Shown here: in pieces, positions 2,093 to 32,861 of the stretch
Layout of the letters: the number at the start of each line of letters is the position of its first letter
Position numbering within the stretch: position 1 is the first letter of the stretch
Source of the DNA: a virus
Taxonomy: Duplodnaviria; Heunggongvirae; Uroviricota; Caudoviricetes
Virus record (IMG/VR): IMGVR_UViG_2718218355_000003
Coordinates: 1-33,888 of that record
DNA: 33,888 nt
Strand: one strand, 5' to 3'
Made by a program: the position numbers and the translations under genes
Notes under the pieces: model-generated
Databases searched by the model: none
Seen by the model: only the letters and a program-made list of their open reading frames with translations
Told to the model about the DNA's origin: nothing

Positions 2093-3193
2093 TCACTCTG
2101 TTTCTGCTATCCATTCCGGGATTTTTGCTTCAAGCTCAAGCTGTGTGGTAAAGCCACTGTTATCAATAGAATGCTCAACTTTTGCAATAATCCAGTCCTG
2201 ATTGTCGATGTCGCTTTTAAAGCCTGCCACCGTGCCATGCATTTCGGGGTAGAGTTCAGCGCGACCACGTGCCAGCGTGATGGAGAATGATGCGGCTCCG
2301 CGTTGTAGCTGTTGCCACTTTGCCGCCGCTGCGCGTCTTGCTGCCTGCTCGTTCTGATAAGTCTTGCGTAACACAAACACGTTGCCTTCCGCGCCTTCCA
2401 TATAGTCGCCTTCCCGGCTGCTGCTTTTCTCCTTTTTCGGTTTGCGGCGTTTCACGCTGACTTTTTTCTTTTTCCCGTAATTAAGATCAAGCCAGTAGGC
2501 GCGTACACCCGTATACGCCTCGCGGTCAGCAATGCGAAACTGATGGCGATCGCCGCTGCTGCGTGTGATGGCAAACGATGGCAATGGTTTTCCCTGCGCG
2601 TTCACGCCACCGCCTGGCATGATGAATAACAGATTACCGCTTTTTACCGTGGTGATTGCGCCCAGCATTTCCGCCATGCGCGTAAGAAAGGACATGTCGC
2701 TTTCTTCGGTCTGGTCGGCGTGGTCGATTTCGATATCCATCAGCATTTCGCTGATTTGCGGTTTCAGACCGTACCGATGAGCGATGGCGGATACCACACG
2801 CTCAACGGTCACATCATGCCAGGACACCTCACGTTTAACGTTAAATTCATCCCGAAAATCTGCGCTTCTGGCTGAAACAGTCAGCCTGTCCGGCGGTCCT
2901 TCGTGAGCGATTTCATCAACAATGTAAGTGCCTTTTTCTGTCAGCGGTTCTCCTTTCCAGCCAATGAGAACCGTCAGGCGCGCGCCCCGTGGCGGTAGCT
3001 GCAACTGACCATCCGCATCATCCAGCGTGATGGTGAGCTGGTCCGCCTCAAATCCCCGGTTGTCGGTCAGTGACAGGCTCATCAGGCGCTCTGCCACGCC
3101 TGACAGCGTTTTACCCTCCGCGAGAATATCAAAATCCGGCATTTTCACGGGGTCTGTGCCCTGACTGAGCAATTGCATGGTGGTGTCGGTCAT
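2093..3193 (-). CDS. D: tail protein D (late control gene D family)
   Basis: 366-aa ORF with P2 gpD-like size and composition. Start set at the ATG (MTDTTMQLL...) preceded by GGGAGGG; the track ORF extends upstream to 3325 without an RBS. Confidence 0.8.
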   Translation of the reverse strand: MTDTTMQLLSQGTDPVKMPDFDILAEGKTLSGVAERLMSLSLTDNRGFEADQLTITLDDADGQLQLPPRGARLTVLIGWKGEPLTEKGTYIVDEIAHEGPPDRLTVSARSADFRDEFNVKREVSWHDVTVERVVSAIAHRYGLKPQISEMLMDIEIDHADQTEESDMSFLTRMAEMLGAITTVKSGNLLFIMPGGGVNAQGKPLPSFAITRSSGDRHQFRIADREAYTGVRAYWLDLNYGKKKKVSVKRRKPKKEKSSSREGDYMEGAEGNVFVLRKTYQNEQAARRAAAAKWQQLQRGAASFSITLARGRAELYPEMHGTVAGFKSDIDNQDWIIAKVEHSIDNSGFTTQLELEAKIPEWIAETE

Positions 3194-3350
3194 CTGTTCC
3201 CTCCCTGTGCGGCATGGTCGCATGTGCGTGCGGAGGGGGTTACTGCTTTTTGTTGTCGCCGGGTCGGGAGAACGGCGCAGGGGTGAGATTACGCGCGTGG
3301 TGGGTGATGATTGTTGCCGAATCATTTAACGGATACAAGGGGCTGAAGCT
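3194..3350. promoter_or_regulatory. divergent intergenic region between D (minus) and FI (plus); presumed late promoters
   Basis: 157-bp gap between divergent starts. No canonical TGT-N12-ACA Ogr site could be confirmed by eye. Confidence 0.3.
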
Positions 3351-8944: not shown

Positions 8945-8982
8945 AAAAAACCGCTAATGGTCAGATTAGCGGTTTTCATTTT
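8945..8982. terminator. bidirectional intrinsic terminator between convergent U and invertase genes
   Basis: A-run, 8-bp stem CCGCTAAT/ATTAGCGG with 6-nt loop, then T-run; overlaps the invertase stop codon. Confidence 0.5.
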
Positions 8983-9565
8983 CCTGAGTCTGCCCGGTTG
9001 TTTCTTCAGTCTGTATATCGCCTACAGGGTGATAACGATAAATCGTCGATGTGCCAATGCCGTAAATTATTGCCAGTTGTTTTCTGTCGTGCCCGTTTTT
9101 GATTAGCCTTGCTATTTGCTCATGCTGTTCTTTTGTCAGCTTCGGTCGACGTCCGCCTGTGCGCCCCCTTGCGCGCGCTGCCGCCAGCCCGGCCAGTGTA
9201 CGTTCAACAATTAATTCACGTTCCATTTCAGCCAGGGCACCCATCACGTGGAAGAAAAAACGCCCCATTGGAGAAGATGTGTCTATGCTGTCGGTCAGAC
9301 TGCGAAAATTAATCCCTCGCTCCCGTAGTTCCCCGACGAGAGAAATCAGATGTTTCATGCTTCGCCCGAGGCGATCCAGTTTCCAGACAACCAGCGTGTC
9401 ACCTTTTTGAAGGCGCTTTAAAGCGCGTTTTAATCCCGGTCGGTCTGTCTTTGTCCCGCTTAATTTATCTTCAAATATTTGTTCACATCCTGCACAAACA
9501 AGAGCGTTTCGTTGCAGGTCTGTATTCTGGTCATTTGTTGATACCCTTACATAGCCAATCAGCAC
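8966..9565 (-). CDS. serine DNA invertase (Hin/Gin/Cin/Pin family)
   Basis: LIGYVRVSTNDQNTDLQRNAL... N-terminal catalytic-serine motif and C-terminal HTH (GIGTSTIYRY). Likely GTG start at 9565; the track ORF starts at a TTG at 9583. Confidence 0.85.
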   Translation of the reverse strand: MLIGYVRVSTNDQNTDLQRNALVCAGCEQIFEDKLSGTKTDRPGLKRALKRLQKGDTLVVWKLDRLGRSMKHLISLVGELRERGINFRSLTDSIDTSSPMGRFFFHVMGALAEMERELIVERTLAGLAAARARGRTGGRRPKLTKEQHEQIARLIKNGHDRKQLAIIYGIGTSTIYRYHPVGDIQTEETTGQTQENENR

Positions 9566-9619
9566 ACTGAATCTCCCGTCCAAAAGCGCAAATCATGCCA
9601 TGCAGGCCAGAAACGGCCA

Positions 9620-9645
9620 TTATTTAAAACCTCGGTTTACGAGAA
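9620..9645. other. inversion crossover site (hix/gix-like 26-bp site), left
   Basis: TTATTTAAAACCTCGGTTTACGAGAA is an inverted copy (about 20/26 identical, shared 12-bp core ACCTCGGTTTAC) of the site inside gene H at 12298-12323, and resembles the remembered Mu gix site. Confidence 0.6.
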
Positions 9646-10341
9646 CTCGGCACAAGCGGGGAGAAAATACCGTTACTCAGTACAGCGAATACCTGGACCA
9701 ATCGACAAACATTCAGCGGTGGCCTTTCTGGGGAACTGTCCGGCAATGCCGCTACTGCAACAAAGCTGAAAACAGCACGAAAAATTGCTGGAGTTGGTTT
9801 TGATGGTTCTAGCGATATTTCAATTAGTGCCAAAAATGTCAATGCATTTGCACTCCGACAAACAGGTAATACTGTTAATGGTGATACATCCGTTGGATGG
9901 AATTGGGATAGTGGTGCATATAACGCCCTGATTGGTGGTGCATCTGCATTAATTCTTCACTTTAATATAAATGCTGGTAGCTGTCCTGCCGTACAATTCC
10001 GTGTGAATTATAAAAATGGTGGCATTTCCTACAGGTCGGCTCGTGATGGTTATGGGTTTGAATTAGGTTGGTCAGATTTCTATACCACGACACGAAAACC
10101 TTCAGCGGGAGATGTTGGTGCATATACGCGGGCAGAATGTAACTCAAGGTTTATTACAGGTATTCGCCTTGGCGGTCTGTCATCTGTTCAGACATGGAAT
10201 GGTCCCGGCTGGTCTGACAGGTCAGGTTATGTCGTTACGGGTTCAGTTAACGGAAACCGTGATGAATTAATTGATACAACACAGGCAAGGCCAATTCAGT
10301 ATTGCATTAATGGGACGTGGTATAACGCGGGGAGTATTTAA
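9631..10341 (+). CDS. alternative tail-fibre C-terminal cassette (start-less, silent in this orientation)
   Basis: Frame open from the crossover site with no start codon; begins NLGLRELG... (H has YLGLQET at the crossover) and ends ...RPIQYCINGTWYNAGSI, paralleling the H C-terminus ...RPIQKYINGTWYNVAQV. Confidence 0.7.
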   Translation, partial: LGLRELGTSGEKIPLLSTANTWTNRQTFSGGLSGELSGNAATATKLKTARKIAGVGFDGSSDISISAKNVNAFALRQTGNTVNGDTSVGWNWDSGAYNALIGGASALILHFNINAGSCPAVQFRVNYKNGGISYRSARDGYGFELGWSDFYTTTRKPSAGDVGAYTRAECNSRFITGIRLGGLSSVQTWNGPGWSDRSGYVVTGSVNGNRDELIDTTQARPIQYCINGTWYNAGSI

Positions 10342-10343
10342 CG

Positions 10344-10877
10344 ATGATGCACTTAAAAAACATTACTGCTGGCAACCCTAAAACAAAAGAGCAATACCAG
10401 CTAACAAAGCAATTTAACATCAAATGGCTTTATTCAGATGATGGAAAAAACTGGTATGAGGAACAAAAGAACTTTCAGCCTGATACGTTGAAAATGGTCT
10501 ATGACCACAACGACGTTATTATTTGTATTGAAAAGGATGTTTCAGCAATTAATCCAGAAGGCGCAAGCGTCGTTGAGGTTCCTGATATTACAGCAAATCG
10601 CCGGGCTGATATTTCGGGTAAATGGATGTTCAAAGATGGCGTAGTGATAAAGCGAACTTATACCGAGGAGGAACAGAGGCAGCAGGCAGAGAATGAAAAG
10701 CAAAGCCTGTTGCAACTTGTCAGGGATAAAACCCAGCTATGGGACTCACAGCTACGGCTGGGCATCATTTCCGACGAGAATAAACAAAAATTAACCGAGT
10801 GGATGCTCTACGCGCAGAAAGTCGAATCCACAGACACCTCCAGCCTGCCAGTAACATTTCCCGAACAACCTGAATGA
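10344..10877 (+). CDS. alternative tail-fibre assembly chaperone (Tfa, G-like)
   Basis: 177 aa; N-terminal ~110 aa nearly identical to the minus-strand Tfa at 10906..11433 ([22 protein letters not shown]...), C-terminus diverged. Confidence 0.8.
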   Translation: MMHLKNITAGNPKTKEQYQLTKQFNIKWLYSDDGKNWYEEQKNFQPDTLKMVYDHNDVIICIEKDVSAINPEGASVVEVPDITANRRADISGKWMFKDGVVIKRTYTEEEQRQQAENEKQSLLQLVRDKTQLWDSQLRLGIISDENKQKLTEWMLYAQKVESTDTSSLPVTFPEQPE

Positions 10878-10880
10878 GAC

Positions 10881-10910
10881 AAGGCCCTCTATCGGGCCTT
10901 AATTTTTATT
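10881..10910. terminator. hairpin between the two convergent tail-fibre assembly genes
   Basis: AGGCCC-TCTATC-GGGCCT stem-loop followed by TAATTTTTATT. Confidence 0.4.
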
Positions 10911-11433
10911 CAGGCTTTTGTGGCCATTCAGGATTTGCCGTATCCACACGGTTGACCAGAACACTGTAACGTTCCCATGCTTCCAGTCGTGTGCGTTCCT
11001 CGTCTGTTGCCATATTCAGCCTGACAGCGCGTTCCAGCGGCTGGATGACTGATTCAGCTTCGGAAAGCAATGCGGTCTTTTGTGATTCTGCCTGTTGTTG
11101 CTGCTCATCTGTCGTATAAATCCGTTTAACCACAGTTCCGTCCTTAAACATCCACTTCCCTGAATCATCGGCACGACGATTGGCTGTTATATCTGGAATC
11201 TCAACGACACTAAAGCCTTCGGGATTAAGCGTTGAGGCATCTCTGGTGATAGCGACAATAATATTATTTTCATCGTAAACAATCTTTATTGTGTCTGGCT
11301 GAAAGTTCTTCACTTCCTCATACCAGTTTTTTCCGTCTTCGGACCATAACCAGATAACATCAAAATTCTTTGTTAGCTGATATTGCTCTTTTGTTTTTGG
11401 ATTACCTGACTTAATGTTCTTTAAATGCTGCAT
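10906..11433 (-). CDS. G: tail-fibre assembly chaperone G (expressed orientation)
   Basis: 175 aa directly downstream of H on the same strand; Tfa-family N-terminal region. Confidence 0.85.
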
Positions 11434-11436
11434 AAC

Positions 11437-13587
11437 TTACACCTGCGCAACGTTATACCATGTGCCATTGATGTATTTTTGTATCGGCCTGAAGATGGCT
11501 TCATCATCGCCATCTACTTCACCAATGATTCTTAATCCGGTAATCGTGTGTCCGGCTTTTTCATAACGACCACCTCGCGCCATCAATTGAACAACTCGCG
11601 TACCCAGGCGAACATCTTTCACATAGCGGGAATCAAAATTTCCCCAGTTGCTGGGTTGCATCTGACCGTTAACAGCAAATATTACCGAGTTATCTGTATT
11701 TCGCTGGCTATAGAAATGCCATCCGGCCTCATCGCCTAACTCTGCAACCACTGGACGGGTGGAAGCACCCCATAAATTAAAGGTAATATTCTTCGTGGAT
11801 GTATTAGAGCTGGATAGCGAGAACTTTTTACTATCACCTGCCTGAATATTTTTAAAAGCAATAGCAACTCCATTCTGAAAGCGGAATACTCGCTGACTAT
11901 TAGCGTAAACATCCAGAATACCATCACCATTCTGTTTGAATCCGGTGTCATTATCACCAAGAACAATAGAGCTACCACCTAACGCATTCGTCGTACCAAC
12001 TCCAAGACTGCCATTAATGACGGCATTTACCAGAATATTTAGTGCATCCCATTTCAGCGTCATCAGGTCTTTTGTTGTGGTGCTCTGGCGGCTTCTCCAT
12101 TTGAAATATTCATTGCCGTTGTCGCCTGTTTCAAACCACATGTATGAATCAGTGTCACCATCAGCATCATTTTTAAATCCAATCTTCGCCCAGTCAGTAT
12201 TTCGAATCCAGGCAAGGATTGAGTCATTTTCAAAAGTAAGCCCACCGGACAAGGTATCGCCATTTTTTTGCACGGCGTTACCAGCCCTGTTTACCGTTTC
12301 CTGTAAACCGAGGTATTCGATAACGGCGGCAACGGTCGATTTCGCAAGAATATCCCGCCCGATTTTTGTCAGAGTTGCCAGGCTGGCGACATCATTCCCC
12401 GTAAAATACGGAAACCTGTCTGCCGCAGTAGCAAGCCCGGCCAGCGCCGTCAGGGTGGCATCTTTCGGTTGCTTACCCGCAAGCGCGTTAGTCATGGTGG
12501 TCGCAAAATTCGGGTCGTTGCCCAGCGCCGCAGCCAGCTCGTTCAGCGTGTTCAGTGCATCAGGTGACGAATCTACAAGGGCGGCAATTGCAGCCATAAC
12601 GAAAGCCGTGCTTGCGATTTGGGTATTATTCGTTCCCTGTCGCGCAGTTGGTGTTGTTGGCGTTCCGGTCAGCGCCGGGCTGTTTAATGGGGCTTTCTTA
12701 TTTGTTTCATCCATTACCGCCTTAACCGCTTTCGATGTCGCGGCCAGTGTTTCAGACGTGCTGTTGGTGGCACTACTGAGCTGGACAATCCCTTTTTGTG
12801 CTGTCGTGGCGTCCTGAGCGGTATATTTTGCGTTAGCAAGATCATACGCGGCCTTTACTGCTTTCGGCGTTGCAGCCTGCGTTTCAGACGTGCTGTTGGT
12901 GGCGCTACTGAGCTGGACAAGGCCTTTTCGCGTCGTGCTGGCATCCTGCGCAGTATATTTACCGTTAGCAAGATCATACGCGGCCTTAACCGCTTTCGGC
13001 GTTGCAGCCTGCGTTTCAGACACGCTGTTAGTGGCGCTACTGAGTTGAACAAAGCCTTTTGCGGTCAGCGAGGCGTCCGGGTGACGTCGTGACTGTTCAT
13101 GCTCTTTCAGTTTGTCATCCACGTAATCCACTGTGGCCATCACCATGGTGTTATTCACGGTAAGCGCCACGGTGGCCGTGCTGGATACGGTCAGAATGGT
13201 GCGAAATGTTTGTGCGCGTCCGGACCCTTCGGCAACGATTGGCTTGTAACTTTCGGCAGTATTGCCCACCGCGATCAAATCGCCGTGCTCATCAAACACA
13301 CCAATTTCCCGGATCCAGAATCCGCCCGTTTCAGGAGGAATAAGCAGCTCCGCAATAATGCGGTTCTGATGTGTTGCGTCCAGGATGACGCGATTAACAG
13401 TATGTCGCCACACCTCATGCACCAGACGGGTCTGCTTACTGTCTGGTGTGGGCAACGTGCCGCCACCGTCGCCCACGGCCATATGAGTCAGGCGAACAGG
13501 CTTACCATCTGGCGCGGCTGCCTGAGCTAATTTTTTGGCACCTGTATCGGTGATAACGGTTTTAAATTTTCGTGTTGTGGTACTCAT
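11437..13587 (-). CDS. H: tail fibre protein H (constant N-terminal part plus invertible C-terminal part)
   Basis: 716 aa in the P2 gpH position; internal tandem ~41-aa repeats; C-terminal third lies inside the invertible segment. Confidence 0.85.
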   Translation of the reverse strand: MSTTTRKFKTVITDTGAKKLAQAAAPDGKPVRLTHMAVGDGGGTLPTPDSKQTRLVHEVWRHTVNRVILDATHQNRIIAELLIPPETGGFWIREIGVFDEHGDLIAVGNTAESYKPIVAEGSGRAQTFRTILTVSSTATVALTVNNTMVMATVDYVDDKLKEHEQSRRHPDASLTAKGFVQLSSATNSVSETQAATPKAVKAAYDLANGKYTAQDASTTRKGLVQLSSATNSTSETQAATPKAVKAAYDLANAKYTAQDATTAQKGIVQLSSATNSTSETLAATSKAVKAVMDETNKKAPLNSPALTGTPTTPTARQGTNNTQIASTAFVMAAIAALVDSSPDALNTLNELAAALGNDPNFATTMTNALAGKQPKDATLTALAGLATAADRFPYFTGNDVASLATLTKIGRDILAKSTVAAVIEYLGLQETVNRAGNAVQKNGDTLSGGLTFENDSILAWIRNTDWAKIGFKNDADGDTDSYMWFETGDNGNEYFKWRSRQSTTTKDLMTLKWDALNILVNAVINGSLGVGTTNALGGSSIVLGDNDTGFKQNGDGILDVYANSQRVFRFQNGVAIAFKNIQAGDSKKFSLSSSNTSTKNITFNLWGASTRPVVAELGDEAGWHFYSQRNTDNSVIFAVNGQMQPSNWGNFDSRYVKDVRLGTRVVQLMARGGRYEKAGHTITGLRIIGEVDGDDEAIFRPIQKYINGTWYNVAQV
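12298..12323. other. inversion crossover site (hix/gix-like 26-bp site), right, inside H
   Basis: TTCCTGTAAACCGAGGTATTCGATAA closely resembles the remembered Mu gix site; encodes the conserved LGL tripeptide at about H residue 426. Confidence 0.6.
12700..13071 (-). repeat. three tandem ~123-bp coding repeats within H
   Basis: Protein repeats ...QLSSATNS(V/T)SETQAATPKAVKAAYDLAN(G/A)KYTAQDA... three times; the DNA repeats are nearly identical. Confidence 0.8.
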
Positions 13588-23750: not shown

Positions 23751-24796
23751 TGAGCAGAAAAAATAAAAAAGTGCGCATGAGTTCACGCATTGATCTCGCT
23801 GATGCGCTCAGGAAAGAATCATCGCTCAGTGCATTCACATTTGATGGTCCTTATCGCCTGACCGGGCATGACCTGCTGGACAATATGTACTGTGCTGATA
23901 ACGGGTGGTGGTATGAAACCCCGGTGGACTGGTACGGTCTGGCAAGAGCTGCCCGGCAAACGTCCTGGCATCAGTCTGCGCTTTACTTTAAGCGCAATGT
24001 ATTGCTCGGTTGCTATATTCCGCACCCGCTGCTTTCCCGGCAGGATTTCTCGGCGCTGGCGCTGGACTGGTTTGTGTTCGGTAACGCGTTCCTTGAGCTT
24101 CGAAGCAATATGCTCGGTGAACCGCTTAAATTACGGCACGCCCTGGCGAAATACATGCGACGCGGAAGCGATCTTGAATCATGGTGGTATGTGCAGGATG
24201 GCAAGGACGCGTTCCAGTTTCGCCCTGGCAAAGTGTGCCACCTGATGAATCCGGATATTAACCAGGAAATCTACGGCATGCCGGAATATCTTGGCGCATT
24301 ACTCTCGGCCAGCCTGTCTCATTCGGCGGACATGTTCAGAAAACTGTATTACGACAACGGATCCCACGCCGGGTGCATCATCTACATCGGTGCAGCGCAG
24401 GTAAACCGCGAAAGCATGGACTCCCTGAAAGAAACGCTACAGGGGGCACGTGGTGGTGGTGCGTTTAAAAACGTGCTCATTCATGCGCCCAACGGGGGCA
24501 AAGAGGGGGTGCAAATTTTGCCGTTCCAGCAGATCACCGCAAAGGATGAGTTCATGAATGTTAAGGCGGCATCCCGTGATGATGTGCTGGCTGCGCACCG
24601 CGTTCCGCCGCAACTGATGGGGGCAATGCCGGGCGAAAAAAGTGCGTTTGGTGATGTGGAGAAGGCCGCGCGGGTTTACGCAATTAACGAGCTGATGCCC
24701 GTCATGGAGGCCATGAAGCACATCAATGACTGGCTTGGCGAAGAGGTGATCCGCTTTAACCCTTACGCACTGTTAGACACCCAGCCCACATCCTGA
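23750..24796 (+). CDS. Q: portal protein Q
   Basis: 348 aa, MSRKNKKV...; ATG overlaps the P stop; last gene before the presumed cos region, as in P2. Confidence 0.88.
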   Translation: MSRKNKKVRMSSRIDLADALRKESSLSAFTFDGPYRLTGHDLLDNMYCADNGWWYETPVDWYGLARAARQTSWHQSALYFKRNVLLGCYIPHPLLSRQDFSALALDWFVFGNAFLELRSNMLGEPLKLRHALAKYMRRGSDLESWWYVQDGKDAFQFRPGKVCHLMNPDINQEIYGMPEYLGALLSASLSHSADMFRKLYYDNGSHAGCIIYIGAAQVNRESMDSLKETLQGARGGGAFKNVLIHAPNGGKEGVQILPFQQITAKDEFMNVKAASRDDVLAAHRVPPQLMGAMPGEKSAFGDVEKAARVYAINELMPVMEAMKHINDWLGEEVIRFNPYALLDTQPTS

Positions 24797-24823
24797 CGCG
24801 CTTCGCTTGTCTGCTGCTTCGCC

Positions 24824-24846
24824 GGGGCATAAAAAATTTATGCCCC
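24824..24846. other. perfect 10-bp-arm palindrome just after the portal gene (cos-proximal)
   Basis: GGGGCATAAA-AAA-TTTATGCCCC; no U-tract follows, so it is not a typical intrinsic terminator. Confidence 0.4.
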
Positions 24847-25220
24847 GACTCTCCAGCTCCTGTATCAATCAGATAATTTCACGACGCTTTCCTGCTGATT
24901 GCCATCATCGACAGTCAGACTCTTACGCAATCCCACCGCGTTGACTGCATGTTCTCGCCGTCTCAGTGCGATTTTGACGGCCTTACCTTTCACCCCATCA
25001 AATCAAAAGCTCTCACGTCTTTTTCATGCTCAGCGTGAGAAATATGGCCATTCTGTTGTGTCGCTGCGACATCGTTCAGGGAATGCTATTTACCCCCTGA
25101 AACGCGGGCTGTTCCCCCGTCACCTGCGCGCAGAAAAAGCGCGTTTTTTTGTGCACGCACGGATCCTTGACGGATCCAGCCGCCATGCGGGCCGGAAGGG
25201 TAAAAAGTCGTTCAAAAAAA

Positions 25221-25250
25221 TTGTGCAAATTTGTGCACTATTGTGCAGAA
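25221..25250. repeat. three TTGTGCA iterons phased at exactly 10 bp (a fourth copy near 25149)
   Basis: TTGTGCAAAT TTGTGCACTA TTGTGCAGAA in the non-coding cos-proximal region, with palindromes GGATCCTTGACGGATCC (about 25161-25177) and GGGCGAT...ATCGCCC nearby. Confidence 0.5.
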
Positions 25251-25286
25251 GGGCGATGCGCGATTATCGCCCTGGTTTGAGGGGGA

Positions 25287-25877
25287 TCAGGTGTTATTTT
25301 TATCTGTCGTCAGTGGGCTAAACCATCCACGATTCACATCGCAGGACTGATGCGTTCTGTCCTCGTGTTTCTCCTGCCACAATGCTTTTCCGCCAGCCTT
25401 TATGATGGCTCTTTCAACATCCCGCTCGTATCGCAAGGGCTGAAATACGTCATTAATGAAATATTCGCTTATGTCCGGAAGCGATACTGCAAAATTATTT
25501 GTTTGTTGCGCCGTCCTGCTATGCAGCCAAGCGGCATACTTTAATGCGTCCTGTGCTTTCTGGAATTTAAGTGCATAGTCAGTGGCGATTTTTTCCAGTT
25601 CAGCGATTCGGTTGTCTTTGGTTTCCAGCCAATCAAGTAGCGCCAATACTTCAGGATCCCCGACATCCAACACTGTTACGCGTGATTTTTCATAATGTTC
25701 GTCAGCAAGAGTTCGGCCAATTTTGAAATCTCCATCATCACCATAACCGGAGCAGGCATAAACAACCTGTGCTCCAGATATTCGCTGAATTGACATTTCC
25801 TCGCCGCAAATAGGGCATTTCGGTACTGGCACAGGTGAATAACGTTCACGTAATGCCTGATAGTTGATTTCGCTCAT
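25287..25877 (-). CDS. hypothetical protein with N-terminal Cys-rich (zinc-ribbon-like) motif, 196 aa
   Basis: ATG with AAGGAGAA RBS; CPICGEEM...YACSGYG motif; no confident family assignment. Third gene of the accessory block downstream of A. Confidence 0.6.
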   Translation of the reverse strand: MSEINYQALRERYSPVPVPKCPICGEEMSIQRISGAQVVYACSGYGDDGDFKIGRTLADEHYEKSRVTVLDVGDPEVLALLDWLETKDNRIAELEKIATDYALKFQKAQDALKYAAWLHSRTAQQTNNFAVSLPDISEYFINDVFQPLRYERDVERAIIKAGGKALWQEKHEDRTHQSCDVNRGWFSPLTTDKNNT

Positions 25878-25940
25878 TAAGTCGTTCTCCTTGTTTATGT
25901 TCTGAGGTGGAGAGCAGGGCGAACTCGCCCTGATGTTGTG

Positions 25941-26252
25941 TTATTCAGGAAATAACGCCCGGATATTTCCGGCCATCTGACTGGTTATCTGTGCGGTTGA
26001 TACTGGCTGTGATGCGGGGCGTTCTGTCCTGGTTTGTGTCACTGATAACGCTTCATCACCAGCCCATGCAGCCAGTCGATAAGCCTCTGCCGGATTCATT
26101 TTCAGAAGTGCCAGCCCGGCCAGAAAAGCCACGCGTTGGCCGCTTTTGCGGGCTTCTGGTGTAAGGCTGTCCAGCCAGGCGCATGCTTCTCCTTCGTTCT
26201 TGACGGCGGTGGGCTTCAGATAGAAACTTATCCGTCTGGTCGGAGTCGTCAT
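25941..26252 (-). CDS. parR: ParR/StbB-like partition adaptor protein
   Basis: 103 aa starting MTTPTRRISFYLKP, 4 nt downstream of parM; weak resemblance to R1 ParR; GGAG RBS. Confidence 0.55.
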   Translation of the reverse strand: MTTPTRRISFYLKPTAVKNEGEACAWLDSLTPEARKSGQRVAFLAGLALLKMNPAEAYRLAAWAGDEALSVTQTRTERPASQPVSTAQITSQMAGNIRALFPE

Positions 26253-26256
26253 TGGT

Positions 26257-27216
26257 TTACTCCTTGTCCATTGCGTACAGCCCATTAACCAGAGCAAACT
26301 GTGGCACCCCGTCCGCGATGAAAGTCGCATTAACTCCGCAGGCTTCGCGGATAGCGGGTGCCACAATCTCCGCCCCGCCACCGACAACCATCACCCGCCC
26401 GTAACCCGAAAAACCCGCCAGCGCGCGGATCACGCGTTGTTTCAGTGTTTCTTCCTTTTCACGAATAACCGCCATCAGGCTGGCGTAATGCGCGTCATTG
26501 TGGATGTGCTGGCGCAGCCAGGCTTCATCATGGCGATGTTCAATAATGGTATTGGCGATGTGGTGACTGGTGCGCATACCGTTAGTGGCCATCACCGATA
26601 GCACGGCATCGGCCATCAGTGAAACACCTACGTGTGGATCGCAAAACACCTGGCTGATACCTGCCAGTTGTCCCTGAACCTTTGCCACATCCAGCGTGGT
26701 TCCGCCCAAATCCACAATCAGCAGGGATTCAAACGGACTCATGTCAGCCAGTGCCTTAAAGCCTGCCGGAATGGATTCAGGCATAACCCGCACGTTACGG
26801 ATAGTGAATGCCTCACCGTTCTGGTACTCCACCGGGCGCATAACGTTCGCTTTTTTGCGGTTGATGTTGGTCATATCCGGCTGTGCGTTTGTGTCGAAAT
26901 ACTCGCTCAGTGGCAGGGTGACAACCACATCCACTTCCTGTGGCGTAATACCTGATTTGACCAGCGCATGATGAATGGCAATGACATTCACATCGCTGTA
27001 CTGGTATTGAGTGTCGGTCGTCTGGACAAAGCGATCGCTGACCGGATCAAAACCATAGCGTACGCCATCAAGCATGTAGTTCGCGGGCTGCGTGCCACCG
27101 AACGGCGCAGACCATTCCGACTTGAAGCTGTTCGGGCTGATGGCGTTGCGGCGTTCGCCGTTCTCAGTCCATGCCAGCTTGATGTTGGTGGAGCCGTCGT
27201 CGATACAAATTTTCAT
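26257..27216 (-). CDS. parM: ParM/StbA-like actin-type partition ATPase
   Basis: MKICIDDGSTNIKLAW...YSDVNVIAIHHAL...LIVDLGGTTLDV matches the ASKHA phosphate-1/2 motifs and overall pattern of plasmid R1 ParM. Confidence 0.8.
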   Translation of the reverse strand: MKICIDDGSTNIKLAWTENGERRNAISPNSFKSEWSAPFGGTQPANYMLDGVRYGFDPVSDRFVQTTDTQYQYSDVNVIAIHHALVKSGITPQEVDVVVTLPLSEYFDTNAQPDMTNINRKKANVMRPVEYQNGEAFTIRNVRVMPESIPAGFKALADMSPFESLLIVDLGGTTLDVAKVQGQLAGISQVFCDPHVGVSLMADAVLSVMATNGMRTSHHIANTIIEHRHDEAWLRQHIHNDAHYASLMAVIREKEETLKQRVIRALAGFSGYGRVMVVGGGAEIVAPAIREACGVNATFIADGVPQFALVNGLYAMDKE

Positions 27217-27249
27217 GTCGCTTTTCCTTATGTTGATTAATTAATCGTT

Positions 27250-27345
27250 AACGGGATTCTGAAATCCCGCTTTTGCCTGTTTTGTGCGCGATTCATATAT
27301 CGCGGCGCGTTTTTTGCTCATTTACGGGATTTGTGAATCCCGTTT
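27250..27345. repeat. two ~38-bp repeats each containing the palindrome CGGGATT-N4-AATCCCG followed by a T-rich tract
   Basis: Copy 1 (CGGGATTCTGAAATCCCG) lies between the A stop and the parM start; copy 2 (CGGGATTTGTGAATCCCG) lies inside the last codons of A. Coordinates approximate (my reading is 1 nt out of register with the track here). Confidence 0.45.
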
Positions 27346-30115
27346 CTGTCTGTTTTTTGTTTCCACTGGTCAGGCTACCCCGCAGCAGGTCTGCTTTGCT
27401 GTGGGCGCGTTCAGTGGTTTCACTGATTCTCTGTGCGTGCTCTGCGTCACGGATGGCGCGCAGCATGTCAGAAAGCACGGTAACGGGAGTTTTCATGGTG
27501 TTCTGGTCCTGCTGAATTGTGGATGCCAGGCGTGCAGCGGCTTCTGGGTCTGATGCCCCGAGCTGTTTCAGATAGCTGGAAACCGGGTTATGGCGGATTT
27601 CCGTGCTGTTTACGCCGTGATTACGGCTCAGGTGCTGCCAGAGCTGCGTGATTCGACTGTCCGGGCGGGTATCTGGTTTGCGTACAATTTCAAATCCCTG
27701 CGGTGCAATGATGCTGCCGTCAACGTACAGGCTGCCGCCCCGTAACAGGTGCTGCATCCGCTGTTCACCGATATGCAGGCCGAGAGATTCGGCAGATTCC
27801 CGCCATTCTTTAGCGAGTAATTCGTGGTTATCAGGCAAAGGCCGCTGCTGTTTGCGGCTCTGTGTCCAGCTCTGCATTTCATCACTGCTGTTTTTTGCCT
27901 GTTTGTCACGCAGCGAACGCATCAGCGCCCGGCGTTCGTGCCGTTTCAGTGAGCGCATCCATTCGTTCACTTCAACGCCGTCAGGGAGCTGCGGCCACGG
28001 TGCTGGCCGTTCTTCCGGCTGTTCTGTCCCGTTGTTGTCCGTTTCCTGTACACGGGGACAGTTATTGCCACGAGTCCAAGGGGCGGCAGGGCCGCCCTGA
28101 AGGTCAAAACCATTTTCGCGGGCGCTGTCTTCCGCTTCCGGTTTACGTCTTACCAGCTTCCAGTTATCCGGATGCGTGCACACACGGGAGGATTCCCCGA
28201 TGAATGGCGACCAGATCCCGTAAATCTGTACACTCTGTTCGCCGTAATCGTTCAGCTCATCTGCGAGGTCGTAGGCTGTGCGAATCAGGTAGTCCTTGCG
28301 CGGAACAAGTACGCCACCCTGTTTTTCAATGTAGGTGGCAAAACATCCGGCATCAGCGGCAGCGAGTACCGCATCCATTGCGTCATCCTTCAGCCGTTGC
28401 GGGCCTTCTGGGTTGCGTGCCATCTGGCTGGCAAGGCGGCGGAGTTCACGCCACACCTGACGGGAGGGGATGCCAAAGAACTGGAACTGGCGGACCCGGT
28501 GAAGGCGCGCCCAGCCGATGGCGCGCTCCACGCTCTCGGCCATTGATTTACCTGTTTCGTGGTCAACGCGTGGCTTGCCCGTTTTCGGGTCGATGCCATC
28601 CACGGCGCGGCTGTCCAGGTTCTTTCCGATGTAGGTGGCGATGTAGCTGGTTGGCGTGCCTTTTGAGCCGTCGACGTACTCCGCCTTAAAGCGTGGGGTA
28701 ATATCATCACCCAGCTCGTGACGATCTTCCTGAATGGCAATATCGCGGGTGTGGGACACAATGGTGTCGATTTCTTCCGGATGAGCAAAGACCATCATAT
28801 GCCAGTGCACGGTGCCGTCATGGTGAGGCTCCACCGTGCGGATGCCATACCAGCGCAGGCCGTCGCGGTTCAGTTTCTTGCGGACCGCTGCAAAAAACGT
28901 GTTAACCAGGTAATCGCTGGAGTCGCGCATGGTGGCCCCGTTCCATTTGGGATTCGGATGACCGTTCTCTGTTGTGGCGTGGTATTTTGACGGGCAGGTG
29001 ACAGTCAGAAACACCGCTTTGTCGCCACGGGCTTCGGCCAGAAGTTCCAGCCCCTTCATGGTGGCCATCATTTCTGCCTTACGGTGAACCGGGTTACTTA
29101 CTCCCGCGTAATACACTGTCTCGAGATCAATCGTGAACCCGTCTTCGTTTTCCAGCATGAAACTTTTCAGGAAATCGCGTGTTTTCTCGCGCTGTGCGCG
29201 AAACTCGCTTAACGCGTCCTGGCTCAGATAGGGTGATGTTTTTCTGGAAACCAGACAGGCGGCGCGGAGTTGTTCTTCTCTCCACTCGCAACGTAACAGC
29301 CACAGTTTGCGTTTCCACCATTCCGCACAGGTCAGGCGAAGGATTGCGCCCGGCAGCAGCTCCGTGTCCGGTTCGTTCCTCCGGTCTTTATCTGTTGTCA
29401 GTGCGTCATAATGTGGAGGCATGATGTGCAGGTGTAACGCCATGCGGGCCAGCATCTGATACGCCTTCAGCGTTACATCCATGGTCAGTTCGCCATCGGT
29501 CGCGCCAAAGCCATCGCAGAGTTTTTCGAAGGTGCTGCTGAACATCGCCGCCGTCATGGTGGCCAGCGTCTGTATCTGGTGTTTGTTGAGCTGCGGCAGG
29601 TAAAGCAAATCGTCCAGGCGTTCGCGTCCGGCAAGGGAGCGATAACCCGGTGTCAGCCAGTGTCCGTCAGTGCGATCCAGACGTTCGAATATTTTGCGCA
29701 GGGTTCCGCGTGCATAGCGTTCCGCCTGCCAGCTCTTTTGGCCTTTCCGGCGATCGGCTTCCTGTTTTTTGCGCAGGAAGGAGAGGTGGCGAATAAGCGG
29801 ATCGCGCAGATAGGACGGCAGCAGGCGCAGCGAGGCCATGGCTTCATCCACCGCGCCGCGTGCCTGTTTTCTGGCGTCTCCTGCCAGTGTGATGGTTTTG
29901 TCCTGTTTTTCCTGTGCGTCCAGGCTTTTATTAATCAAGTTGCCCAGTGGCGTGGCGGAGAACGCCGCATCAGCGATTTCCTGGCGGCGCTCGTTCTCTA
30001 CCCGGTAGGCATCCAGCCAGGAGGAAAGCGCGGATTCAGGAGCGGGGATCCCCGTTCCTTCACGCCCCACTGCGTGGCGCGGTTGTTGCCAGTCCCTGAT
30101 GTACTCTGCCGTCAT
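27293..30115 (-). CDS. A: replication initiation endonuclease A (rolling-circle, P2 gpA family)
   Basis: VEPHHDGTVHWHMMVF...YIATYIGKN and ...GIPSRQVWRELRRL match the P2 A catalytic region (VEPHHDGTPHWHMMLF...). At 940 aa it is longer than P2 A. Confidence 0.9.
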   Translation of the reverse strand: MTAEYIRDWQQPRHAVGREGTGIPAPESALSSWLDAYRVENERRQEIADAAFSATPLGNLINKSLDAQEKQDKTITLAGDARKQARGAVDEAMASLRLLPSYLRDPLIRHLSFLRKKQEADRRKGQKSWQAERYARGTLRKIFERLDRTDGHWLTPGYRSLAGRERLDDLLYLPQLNKHQIQTLATMTAAMFSSTFEKLCDGFGATDGELTMDVTLKAYQMLARMALHLHIMPPHYDALTTDKDRRNEPDTELLPGAILRLTCAEWWKRKLWLLRCEWREEQLRAACLVSRKTSPYLSQDALSEFRAQREKTRDFLKSFMLENEDGFTIDLETVYYAGVSNPVHRKAEMMATMKGLELLAEARGDKAVFLTVTCPSKYHATTENGHPNPKWNGATMRDSSDYLVNTFFAAVRKKLNRDGLRWYGIRTVEPHHDGTVHWHMMVFAHPEEIDTIVSHTRDIAIQEDRHELGDDITPRFKAEYVDGSKGTPTSYIATYIGKNLDSRAVDGIDPKTGKPRVDHETGKSMAESVERAIGWARLHRVRQFQFFGIPSRQVWRELRRLASQMARNPEGPQRLKDDAMDAVLAAADAGCFATYIEKQGGVLVPRKDYLIRTAYDLADELNDYGEQSVQIYGIWSPFIGESSRVCTHPDNWKLVRRKPEAEDSARENGFDLQGGPAAPWTRGNNCPRVQETDNNGTEQPEERPAPWPQLPDGVEVNEWMRSLKRHERRALMRSLRDKQAKNSSDEMQSWTQSRKQQRPLPDNHELLAKEWRESAESLGLHIGEQRMQHLLRGGSLYVDGSIIAPQGFEIVRKPDTRPDSRITQLWQHLSRNHGVNSTEIRHNPVSSYLKQLGASDPEAAARLASTIQQDQNTMKTPVTVLSDMLRAIRDAEHAQRISETTERAHSKADLLRGSLTSGNKKQTETGFTNPVNEQKTRRDI

Positions 30116-32454: not shown

Positions 32455-32549
32455 GGTGTGATAACCTATTCAATCTGGTGCTATTTGTGGCTCTTTGTAG
32501 CGTCAAGTGGTACTCAACTGATAACCAATATAGTATTCAGGTGCACACC
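32455..32549. promoter_or_regulatory. immunity switch region (presumed face-to-face early and repressor promoters and operators)
   Basis: 95-bp gap between divergent cox and C starts; two ATAACC-containing direct repeats about 60 bp apart. Confidence 0.45.
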
Positions 32550-32861
32550 ATGTCAATAGAGATATCAAAGAAGCTAAAAGCAATTCGAGAATCTGAGGGG
32601 CTTAGTCAGGCAAAGTTCGCGGATTCAATAGGTATTGCGGTTGGTACGGTTAAGCAATACGAGACTGGTATTCGAGGTGTGGGAACGGAGGTTTTACTGA
32701 AAATCACAATGCACCCGGAATTTAAAAAATACACTACGTGGTTGATGAGTAACGAAACAAATGAGGCTGCTGGGCAGATCAGTCCTTCTCTCTCCCCTGA
32801 TGGGCCAGAAAACACATCGTCTTCTCAAAAGCCCCGCAAGACTGGTACACAGCCCGGCTAA
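32550..32861 (+). CDS. C: immunity repressor C (HTH, P2 C family)
   Basis: MSIEISKKLKAIRESEGLSQAKFADSIGIAVGTVKQYETG HTH, and EFKKYTTWLMSNETNEAAGQISPSL matching the P2 C tail (QFTKYTLWFMTNQIAPESGQIAPAL). Confidence 0.85.
   Translation: MSIEISKKLKAIRESEGLSQAKFADSIGIAVGTVKQYETGIRGVGTEVLLKITMHPEFKKYTTWLMSNETNEAAGQISPSLSPDGPENTSSSQKPRKTGTQPG

Follow-up and report, generated by a model that had tools for sequence, protein, structure and literature searches.

We show that a plasmid-type ParM/ParR partition module, carried by a P2-like prophage, is a constant neighbour of the phage replication gene A and stands outside the variable defence hotspot of these phages, which begins only downstream of parR and not after gene A. 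The module was found in a stretch of 33,888 nucleotides (IMG/VR record IMGVR_UViG_2718218355_000003, positions 1 to 33,888; hereafter the window), the whole of which is a complete P2-like prophage of the P88, or Xuanwuvirus, type. We favour the reading that a complete type II partition module is now a fixed part of the early/replication operon in one large lineage of P2-like temperate phages. Segment 24797-27292 of the window is 100% identical to the chromosome of Escherichia coli M10, where the prophage adjoins btuC, and the same segment is 93–98% identical to the phages P88, P884B11, Chuche, PhiR44_2 and phiSM of Citrobacter.

The locus reads on the minus strand, in the order gene A (27293-30115), a 76-bp gap, parM (26257-27216), a 4-nt gap, parR (25941-26252), a 63-bp gap and a gene for a 196-residue protein (25287-25877). 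A first-pass annotation, made by a model from the letters of the window, had placed the last three open reading frames (ORFs) here and co-oriented with gene A, and the ORF layout bears this out. Beyond the 196-residue gene lie about 490 bp that include cos, followed by the convergent portal gene Q on the plus strand. Gene A encodes the rolling-circle replication initiator (Pfam Phage_GPA, E = 5.6e-132; PHROG 91), and its 3′ end overlaps the predicted centromere described below.

ParM and ParR are an R1-type actin-like ATPase and its adaptor

The 319-residue ParM is an actin-fold ATPase of the R1 type with intact nucleotide-binding motifs. It matches the Pfam StbA_N domain (E = 2.9e-82) and the ParM C-terminal domain (E = 1.3e-68), and its residues 2-316 align with R1 ParM (PDB 1mwk; phmmer, E = 8.9e-93). 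Aligning 18 homologues showed no variation in the phosphate-1 (DDGST), phosphate-2 (DLGGTTLD) and adenosine (GGGA) motifs.

Directly downstream, parR (ATG at 26252, 4 nt, ACCA, past the parM stop codon) encodes a small adaptor of 103 residues with an N-terminal ribbon-helix-helix domain. The protein matches Pfam Plasmid_stab_B (E = 3.1e-23) and PHROG 2515, annotated as 'partition protein' (E = 1.7e-57). A sequence search of ParR against the PDB returned nothing useful and a fold search was needed, in which the best match was the ParR of pB171. Over its first 67 residues the protein is 31% identical to R1 ParR (E = 1e-8), the R1 query sequence having been confirmed against more than 1000 plasmid records. 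The N-terminal strand RRISFYLKP and the helices are arranged as in ribbon-helix-helix proteins, and the C-terminal helix ends in NIRALFPE. In the AlphaFold model (mean pLDDT 70) the N terminus is extended and is followed by three helices; residues 62-85 form a disordered linker that leads into a C-terminal helix (86-100).

All phage ParRs carry (K/G)-N-(I/A)-x-x-(L/F)-F-P at their extreme C terminus, and a multiple alignment matches this stretch to the tail KKNAMKLIN of R1 ParR, which is the part of that protein that binds ParM. By profile, sequence and fold, then, the ParM and ParR assignments of the first-pass annotation hold, including the profile check that it had called for. The three proteins encoded downstream of gene A gave no match in PADLOC and only sub-threshold matches in NCBIfam.

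Both genes are under purifying selection: within the P88 group, pN/pS is 0.055 for parM (66 alleles) and 0.225 for parR (33 alleles). We also observed two groups of parR alleles, about 52% identical to each other, that stand behind near-identical parM genes and the same upstream palindromes (the parR of the window against those of loci L006, L020, L023, L053 and others). In E. coli, many of the matches are interrupted within parR, at query position 167 or 258. Together, the breaks and the two allele groups suggest recombination breakpoints inside this gene.

parMR is a fixed companion of gene A

Rousset et al. 2022 (PMC9122126) described the interval between genes A and Q of E. coli P2-like phages as a defence hotspot, and P2 itself carries old and tin in this slot between A and cos/portal Q (PMC9122126). 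We compared 54 related loci, almost all with a ParM at least 99% identical. Among them, the parR and Q stop codons are separated by 988–4167 bp, and this space is occupied by dozens of unrelated gene families, including an Ead-like gene (19 of 54 loci) and a ClpX-zinc-finger protein (11 of 54). Further cargo of relatives comprises IetAS, AbiL, an RmrA-like protease, PDC-M04A, Fic/Doc, a Gp49-type toxin and DUF4760; in the window, the slot between parR and cos holds the Ead/Ea22-like gene only. Unlike these contents, parMR is constant and always lies directly beside gene A. The 196-residue Ead-like gene thus behaves as variable cargo of the hotspot and parMR does not.

This arrangement extends well beyond close relatives. 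P2-like prophages of Plesiomonas, Hafnia, Serratia and Enterobacter show the same order A, parM, parR, portal, and their ParM proteins are 54–63% identical to that of the window. A comparison of the five lineages gave identities of 52–74% for ParM, 29–55% for A, 31–49% for the portal and 36–53% for the large terminase subunit, and ParM is better kept than the other three proteins in 9 of the 10 lineage pairs. The exception is the close pair Serratia-Enterobacter, in which the portal is 86% and the terminase 80% identical. ParM homologues that are less than about 52% identical were, in the contexts examined, encoded on plasmids or plasmid-like elements. A search with ParM alone across genome contigs recovered three near-identical loci only, and two scans of IMG/VR recovered mostly P88-type contigs and added few divergent lineages.

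Its retention beside A across lineages, together with the purifying selection, indicates that parMR is a selected, long-standing companion of the P2-type replication gene. The fixed place beside A in divergent phages rules out that the module is a recent moron or hotspot cargo. The first-pass annotation had assigned the whole cassette to the accessory position that holds tin/old in P2: the placement between A and cos/portal Q stands, while the term accessory does not apply to parMR, which is fixed beside A in very divergent phages. The comparative data suggest instead something close to a standard phage replication accessory, an outcome that the same annotation had listed as speaking against its own reading.

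At its other end, the variable slot is bounded on the right by three TGCACAA repeats, phased at 10 bp, which overlap a hairpin and are followed by a run of seven T (25213-25250, minus strand). In 41 of the 54 loci this element lies about 451 nt from the Q stop codon, regardless of the cargo. It could be an early-operon terminator, a recombination boundary of the hotspot or a cos-proximal protein-binding site.

The 196-residue protein is an Ead/Ea22-like hotspot occupant

The protein encoded at 25287-25877 (minus strand) is a member of the Ead/Ea22-like family (PF13935, residues 2-140, E = 2.2e-31; 109.7 bits against a cut-off of 27). Our search found 507 homologues, and every one that bears a family name among the 120 listed is ead/Ea22-like. 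It consists of N-terminal, coiled-coil and C-terminal modules, the mosaic build that is typical of Ead/Ea22-like proteins. A sequence search against the PDB gave nothing useful for this protein.

The gene is a hotspot occupant and not part of the partition cassette. The initial description as a zinc-ribbon protein is not sustained, all zinc-ribbon Pfam models having stayed below threshold (E = 0.014-0.12). The protein has three cysteines in all, a CxxC at 21-24 (C21, C24) and C42, with His61 as a possible fourth ligand, and homologues that share its coiled-coil and C-terminal modules carry alternative N-terminal modules free of cysteine.

The gene had also been noted to lie where phage 186 encodes the Tum antirepressor, with no LexA box in sight. 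Our scan agrees on the latter point, as no CTGT-N8-ACAG box is present within or adjoining 25287-25940, and Pfam, PHROG and NCBIfam searches of the three proteins returned no match to the Tum family. A 186 Tum-type, SOS-controlled antirepressor was therefore rejected. Lambda Ea22 has been reported to favour lysogeny (PMC7093339, PMC10834534).

Two palindromes at the end of gene A form a candidate centromere

The sole repeat family adjoining parMR is a 42-nt direct repeat, with copies at 27245-27286 and 27318-27359 that each contain a perfect palindrome, CGGGATT-N4-AATCCCG. The resulting two ACGGGATT-N4-AATCCCGT palindromes are 73 bp apart and straddle the end of gene A. Palindrome P3 (GCGGGATTTCAGAATCCCGT on the gene strand; 27251-27270) is intergenic, 54 nt upstream of the parM ATG, and palindrome P1 (ACGGGATTCACAAATCCCGT on the gene strand; 27324-27343) lies within the last codons of A; perfect palindromes of this kind are found nowhere else in the window. 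We predict that 27245-27359 is a non-canonical parC, that is, a candidate ParR-binding region in which P3 and P1 would be the ParR sites of the proximal and distal halves, respectively.

The regions upstream of parM were aligned with MAFFT. The results show that the palindromes occur at −127 and −54 from the parM ATG in 78 of 78 P88-type loci, with conserved arms and 4-nt spacers that vary. The Plesiomonas phage presents two CGGGAC-N8-CCCG repeats 72 bp apart, the first of them at the end of A, where other amino acids are encoded. In the Hafnia phage, GGGATT-N4-AAACCC, which lies inside a different ORF, is followed at a spacing of 73 bp by GGGTT-N5-AATCCC. Since the two-site layout is kept in differing coding contexts, the constraint acts on the nucleotide sequence and not on the protein, an argument that applies to DNA and RNA alike. 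The 72–73 bp spacing, equal to seven helical turns, is maintained in the P88-type, Plesiomonas and Hafnia phages, and a related parMR in a non-P2 element is preceded by three repeats with the same 72–73 bp period.

A middle palindrome, CGCGATTCATATATCGCG, covers the stop codon of A (27287-27304) and is probably not a functional unit. We rejected it as a third site: 7 of 9 pairs are formed in the window only, against 2–6 of 9 in all other variants and 6 of 9 in the commonest one.

Two further observations concern the sequences around these sites. Among loci L015-L094, two single loci (n = 1 each) have both palindromes altered at the same arm position: an identical G-to-A change gives ACAGGATT in both copies of the first, and in the second the same arm T is replaced by A in one copy and by C in the other (AATCCC to AAACCC and AACCCC). 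These paired changes hint at concerted change of both sites. Gene A itself encodes 940 residues here against 785–907 in the other parMR-bearing lineages; its Phage_GPA domain covers residues 179-503 only, and the distal palindrome is carried by the variable C-terminal tail.

Three points weigh against the centromere prediction. R1 parC is built from ten 11-bp direct iterons, in two clusters of five around the promoter, and the true plasmid relatives have R1-like arrays of such 11-bp iterons, as opposed to the two sites found here. The Serratia and Enterobacter phages carry a different long inverted repeat that shares a CGGGAA half-site. Finally, P1 and P3 resemble intrinsic terminators on the opposite (plus) strand.

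The palindromes might accordingly be RNA hairpins or terminators, serving to halt antisense transcription before it enters gene A or to process the early mRNA, with ParR binding elsewhere or the centromere lost; this explanation is independent of the alternatives for the function of the module considered below. It agrees with the T-rich runs that follow both palindromes on the plus strand, with their terminator-like scores and with the canonical iteron arrays of the plasmid relatives. However, the T-rich run is missing from the Plesiomonas and Hafnia versions, in which the two-site layout and its spacing are retained, and exact helical phasing would not be expected of RNA hairpins. The lack of any other repeat family near parMR and the paired arm changes in the two single loci also speak against it, and we regard an RNA role in place of a centromere as rather unlikely.

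parMR probably belongs to the early operon

A simple consensus scan, which could miss a weak or ParR-regulated promoter, detected no sigma-70-like site in 24700-27600, including the space between A and parM. On the sense strand, no good terminator is present from A until the hairpin and T7 run at 25238-25213, past the Ead-like gene. A near-consensus promoter (TTGACA-18-TATATT; 32527-32556, minus strand) lies ahead of a cox-like gene and is likely the early promoter for A-parM-parR-ead.

Immediately ahead of parM (27225-27241, minus strand) we read a conserved ATTAATCAA box (27233-27241) and an AAGGA ribosome-binding site (27225-27229). The box also occurs upstream of parM in the Plesiomonas and Hafnia loci, and it does not fit a sigma-70 −10 element.

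Given no local promoter, no earlier terminator and the promoter at 32556-32527, the simplest reading is one early operon, cox...A-parM-parR-cargo, whose genes would be transcribed together. By analogy with P2, this operon would be repressed in the lysogen. The operon anatomy of parMR is consistent with early expression, as in AlpAC-type systems.

The module is almost exclusively chromosomal

The parMR query was found in 1307 of 5426 complete E. coli genomes (about 24%), including O157:H7, O104:H4 and ST131 strains, at 1453 chromosomal and 2 plasmid places. Carriage on a low-copy plasmid, which is characteristic of type II ParMRC systems, is thus not what we observe, and the count indicates that stable plasmid maintenance is not the usual state of these elements. 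It also disfavours the stable episome that had been put forward in the first-pass annotation.

The close matches in PLSDB whose context was examined are prophages integrated in IncC and IncHI2 megaplasmids, and a tblastn search with ParR against plasmids returned only P88-type prophages inside plasmids. One record, NZ_CP148288.1, is a complete P88-type genome deposited as a 34,461-bp circular 'plasmid', with the integrase still present. As a control we considered pENTAS02 (NC_015969.1, our locus L095), a complete 32.6-kb P2-like phage with an integrase and without parMR that was likewise deposited as a circular plasmid, of Enterobacter soli. 'Plasmid' records are therefore not specific to parMR, and in view of this control and of the 1453:2 count the 34-kb record was dropped as specific evidence for an episome.

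Two observations on individual records remain. In pENTAS02, the A-to-Q slot is occupied by a pair of ImmA/IrrE peptidase genes. A contig labelled Vagococcus sp. WN89Y (NZ_JBQPOM010000071.1, L007) contains a P88-type prophage with a ParM that is 98% identical, and is most likely a contamination or a mislabelled assembly.

Proposed function and alternative explanations

We propose that parMR moves or separates the extrachromosomal phage circles while the early operon is on, aiding replication or packaging, and we judge this proposal to have about an even chance of being correct. Upon infection or induction, the early promoter near 32540 would be derepressed and transcription would proceed through cox...A into parM, parR and the hotspot gene. 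ParR dimers would bind both palindromes across the end of A, seven helical turns apart, and the conserved C-terminal helix of ParR would capture the ends of ParM filaments. ATP-driven growth of these filaments may then push apart the circular genomes generated by A-dependent rolling-circle replication, moving them off the replication focus. The separated circles could give a better yield of replication, of packaging or of both, comparable to the action of AlpAC in prophage CGP3, and the module would be silent in the repressed, integrated state.

The first-pass annotation had offered three possibilities, persistence as an episome, positioning of replicating or packaging DNA, and exclusion, of which the second fits the anatomy described here best. 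Its remark that an integrating phage has no obvious need for a type II partition system is answered by two precedents, srpMRC of the SXT/R391 integrative and conjugative elements (ICEs; PMC4489591) and AlpAC of CGP3 (PMC4446434). Besides the reservations about the centromere and the promoter scan given above, two points count against our proposal. Our literature searches found annotation-level mentions only of the P88-type ParMR and no functional study; furthermore, P2, 186 and about three quarters of P2-like coliphages are without parMR (PMC9122126), so that any lytic benefit cannot be essential.

The module might instead act as a transient insurance of inheritance, partitioning the few circles that exist before integration or after non-lytic excision and thereby raising the yield of lysogens. 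This would parallel srpMRC, which is carried by an integrating element, is expressed only with the excision/transfer regulon and helps to reduce the loss of the excised element (PMC4489591). In a similar way, parMR is linked to an operon that would be active only outside stable lysogeny, and such a role is compatible with nearly all copies being chromosomal. On the other hand, a persistence of P2-like genomes through cell divisions before integration is without evidence, and the effect of srpMRC is modest. The linkage to the replication initiator and the conservation above that of morphogenetic genes fit a role in replication at least equally well, and we consider transient insurance unlikely, though worth keeping in view.

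Maintenance of the prophage as a stable low-copy plasmid, instead of or besides integration, is in our view improbable. P2 replication depends on a cis-acting rolling-circle initiator expressed from a repressed early operon, and we know of no copy-number control for it; both features argue against a plasmid lifestyle. So do the nearly complete restriction to chromosomes reported above, the lack of a promoter of its own in the consensus scan and the presence of an integrase in the window, the Plesiomonas locus and the circular record alike (the Hafnia, Serratia and Enterobacter loci stop short of that end). The homology of the module to a true plasmid stability system and the circular record NZ_CP148288.1 point in the opposite direction, and Rousset et al. 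2022 (PMC9122126) briefly raised plasmid maintenance as a possibility; yet the remaining plasmid records examined are prophages within IncC or IncHI2 megaplasmids, and pENTAS02 is filed as a plasmid without having parMR.

The remaining possibility is that ParMR serves in exclusion, as a defence system of the hotspot or as a weapon of incompatibility that would, for instance, mis-segregate plasmids or phages entering the cell with related centromeres. This would suit the gpA-gpQ location (PMC9122126) and the IetAS, AbiL, RmrA-like and toxin-antitoxin genes in the neighbouring slots of relatives, but it is very improbable, as PADLOC does not recognise the module, parMR is invariant in place and sequence while the region after it varies, it has conserved cis sites of its own, and the missing tblastn-detectable plasmid counterpart of ParR makes cross-reaction with plasmid centromeres unlikely.

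Significance

The presence of this cassette in P2-like phages is already known, since RefSeq gives the same annotation, PHROGs holds families for both proteins and Rousset et al. 2022 (PMC9122126) noted a putative partition system in about a quarter of P2-like coliphages. The parMR module is common and cleanly testable, but it is not a new kind of system. What is new here is the distinction between core and cargo, the conservation across genera, the predicted two-palindrome centromere overlapping A and the conserved ParR tail, as well as the chromosome-versus-plasmid count, which argues against the published plasmid suggestion.

A canonical plasmid segregation motor is thus present, within an integrating phage, in about 24% of complete E. 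coli genomes. We advance only tentatively, and with more doubt than confidence, the broader view that an R1-type ParM/ParR has been domesticated as a cytoskeletal device of the lytic cycle, both by about a quarter of the P2-like prophages of E. coli and by their relatives in at least four further enterobacterial genera. With a minimal two-palindrome centromere in the end of A, this device would spread the rolling-circle progeny genomes for replication and packaging. If true, this would be the first such system in tailed phages of Gram-negative bacteria. A lytic DNA organiser would extend actin-based genome positioning from one Corynebacterium prophage to a very common coliphage family and offer a genetically easy model, and a module that only buffers transient circles would be a parallel to the ICE case. 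For annotation, the practical point is that the defence hotspot of these phages should be taken to start after parR and not after gene A.

Other features of the window

Between ogr (332-592) and gene D (2093-3325), a low-GC insert (0.32–0.35) at 917-1874 holds two genes, encoding 134 and 188 residues. Pfam and PADLOC gave no match for either protein, and the insert is probably a second cargo slot. At about 8966-13587, where the GC content dips, a Hin-like 'recombinase family protein' gene stands beside a tail-fibre gene that is truncated and a pair of tail-fibre-assembly genes in opposite orientations, as read from the RefSeq annotation of the identical region of E. coli M10. This region looks like an invertible host-range segment. 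Rfam and tRNA scans gave no match.

Comparison with known systems

The module is most similar in its components to ParMRC (StbA/StbB) of plasmids R1 and NR1. The two share a full-length ParM alignment, intact ATPase motifs, the order parM then parR, the N-terminal fold of ParR, the kind of motif in its C-terminal tail (K-x-N-A/I-x-x-L/F) and cis repeats placed directly upstream of parM. They differ in the replicon, which is an integrating P2-like phage here and a low-copy plasmid in R1, and in the adaptor, as the phage ParR lacks the middle segment of R1 ParR and its 31% identity is confined to 67 residues. The cis region differs as well: the iteron clusters of R1 parC surround a promoter that belongs to parMRC itself, whereas the two 20-bp palindromes overlap the end of A and the consensus scan detected no promoter there.

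For function, our favoured model is AlpC/AlpA of the Corynebacterium glutamicum prophage CGP3, which are induced early and bind circular phage DNA, and on which efficient replication depends (PMC4446434). Both systems pair a prophage-encoded actin-like filament protein with a DNA-binding adaptor, and the Alp adaptor binds sites next to its own operon (PMC4446434). AlpC is nevertheless a distant actin-like protein and not an R1-type ParM, the type of phage and the host phylum are different, and homology between the two adaptors is not expected.

srpMRC of the SXT/R391 ICEs resembles the present case as a type II module on a normally integrated element; it acts on a transient circle, as parMR may do, and its expression is confined to the excision programme (PMC4489591). 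It differs in that SrpM shows only a distant relationship to R1 ParM, no domain can be recognised in SrpR and the element is conjugative and not viral.

Finally, the same cassette is carried or annotated in the phages P88, P884B11, Chuche and phiSM and in RefSeq (WP_000686539.1, WP_000211289.1), and it is identical with the 'putative plasmid partitioning system' listed by Rousset et al. 2022 in the gpA-gpQ hotspot (PMC9122126). Rousset et al. counted the cassette as hotspot content and suggested plasmid maintenance, whereas our analysis places it as a boundary module, outside the variable part and almost always on the chromosome.

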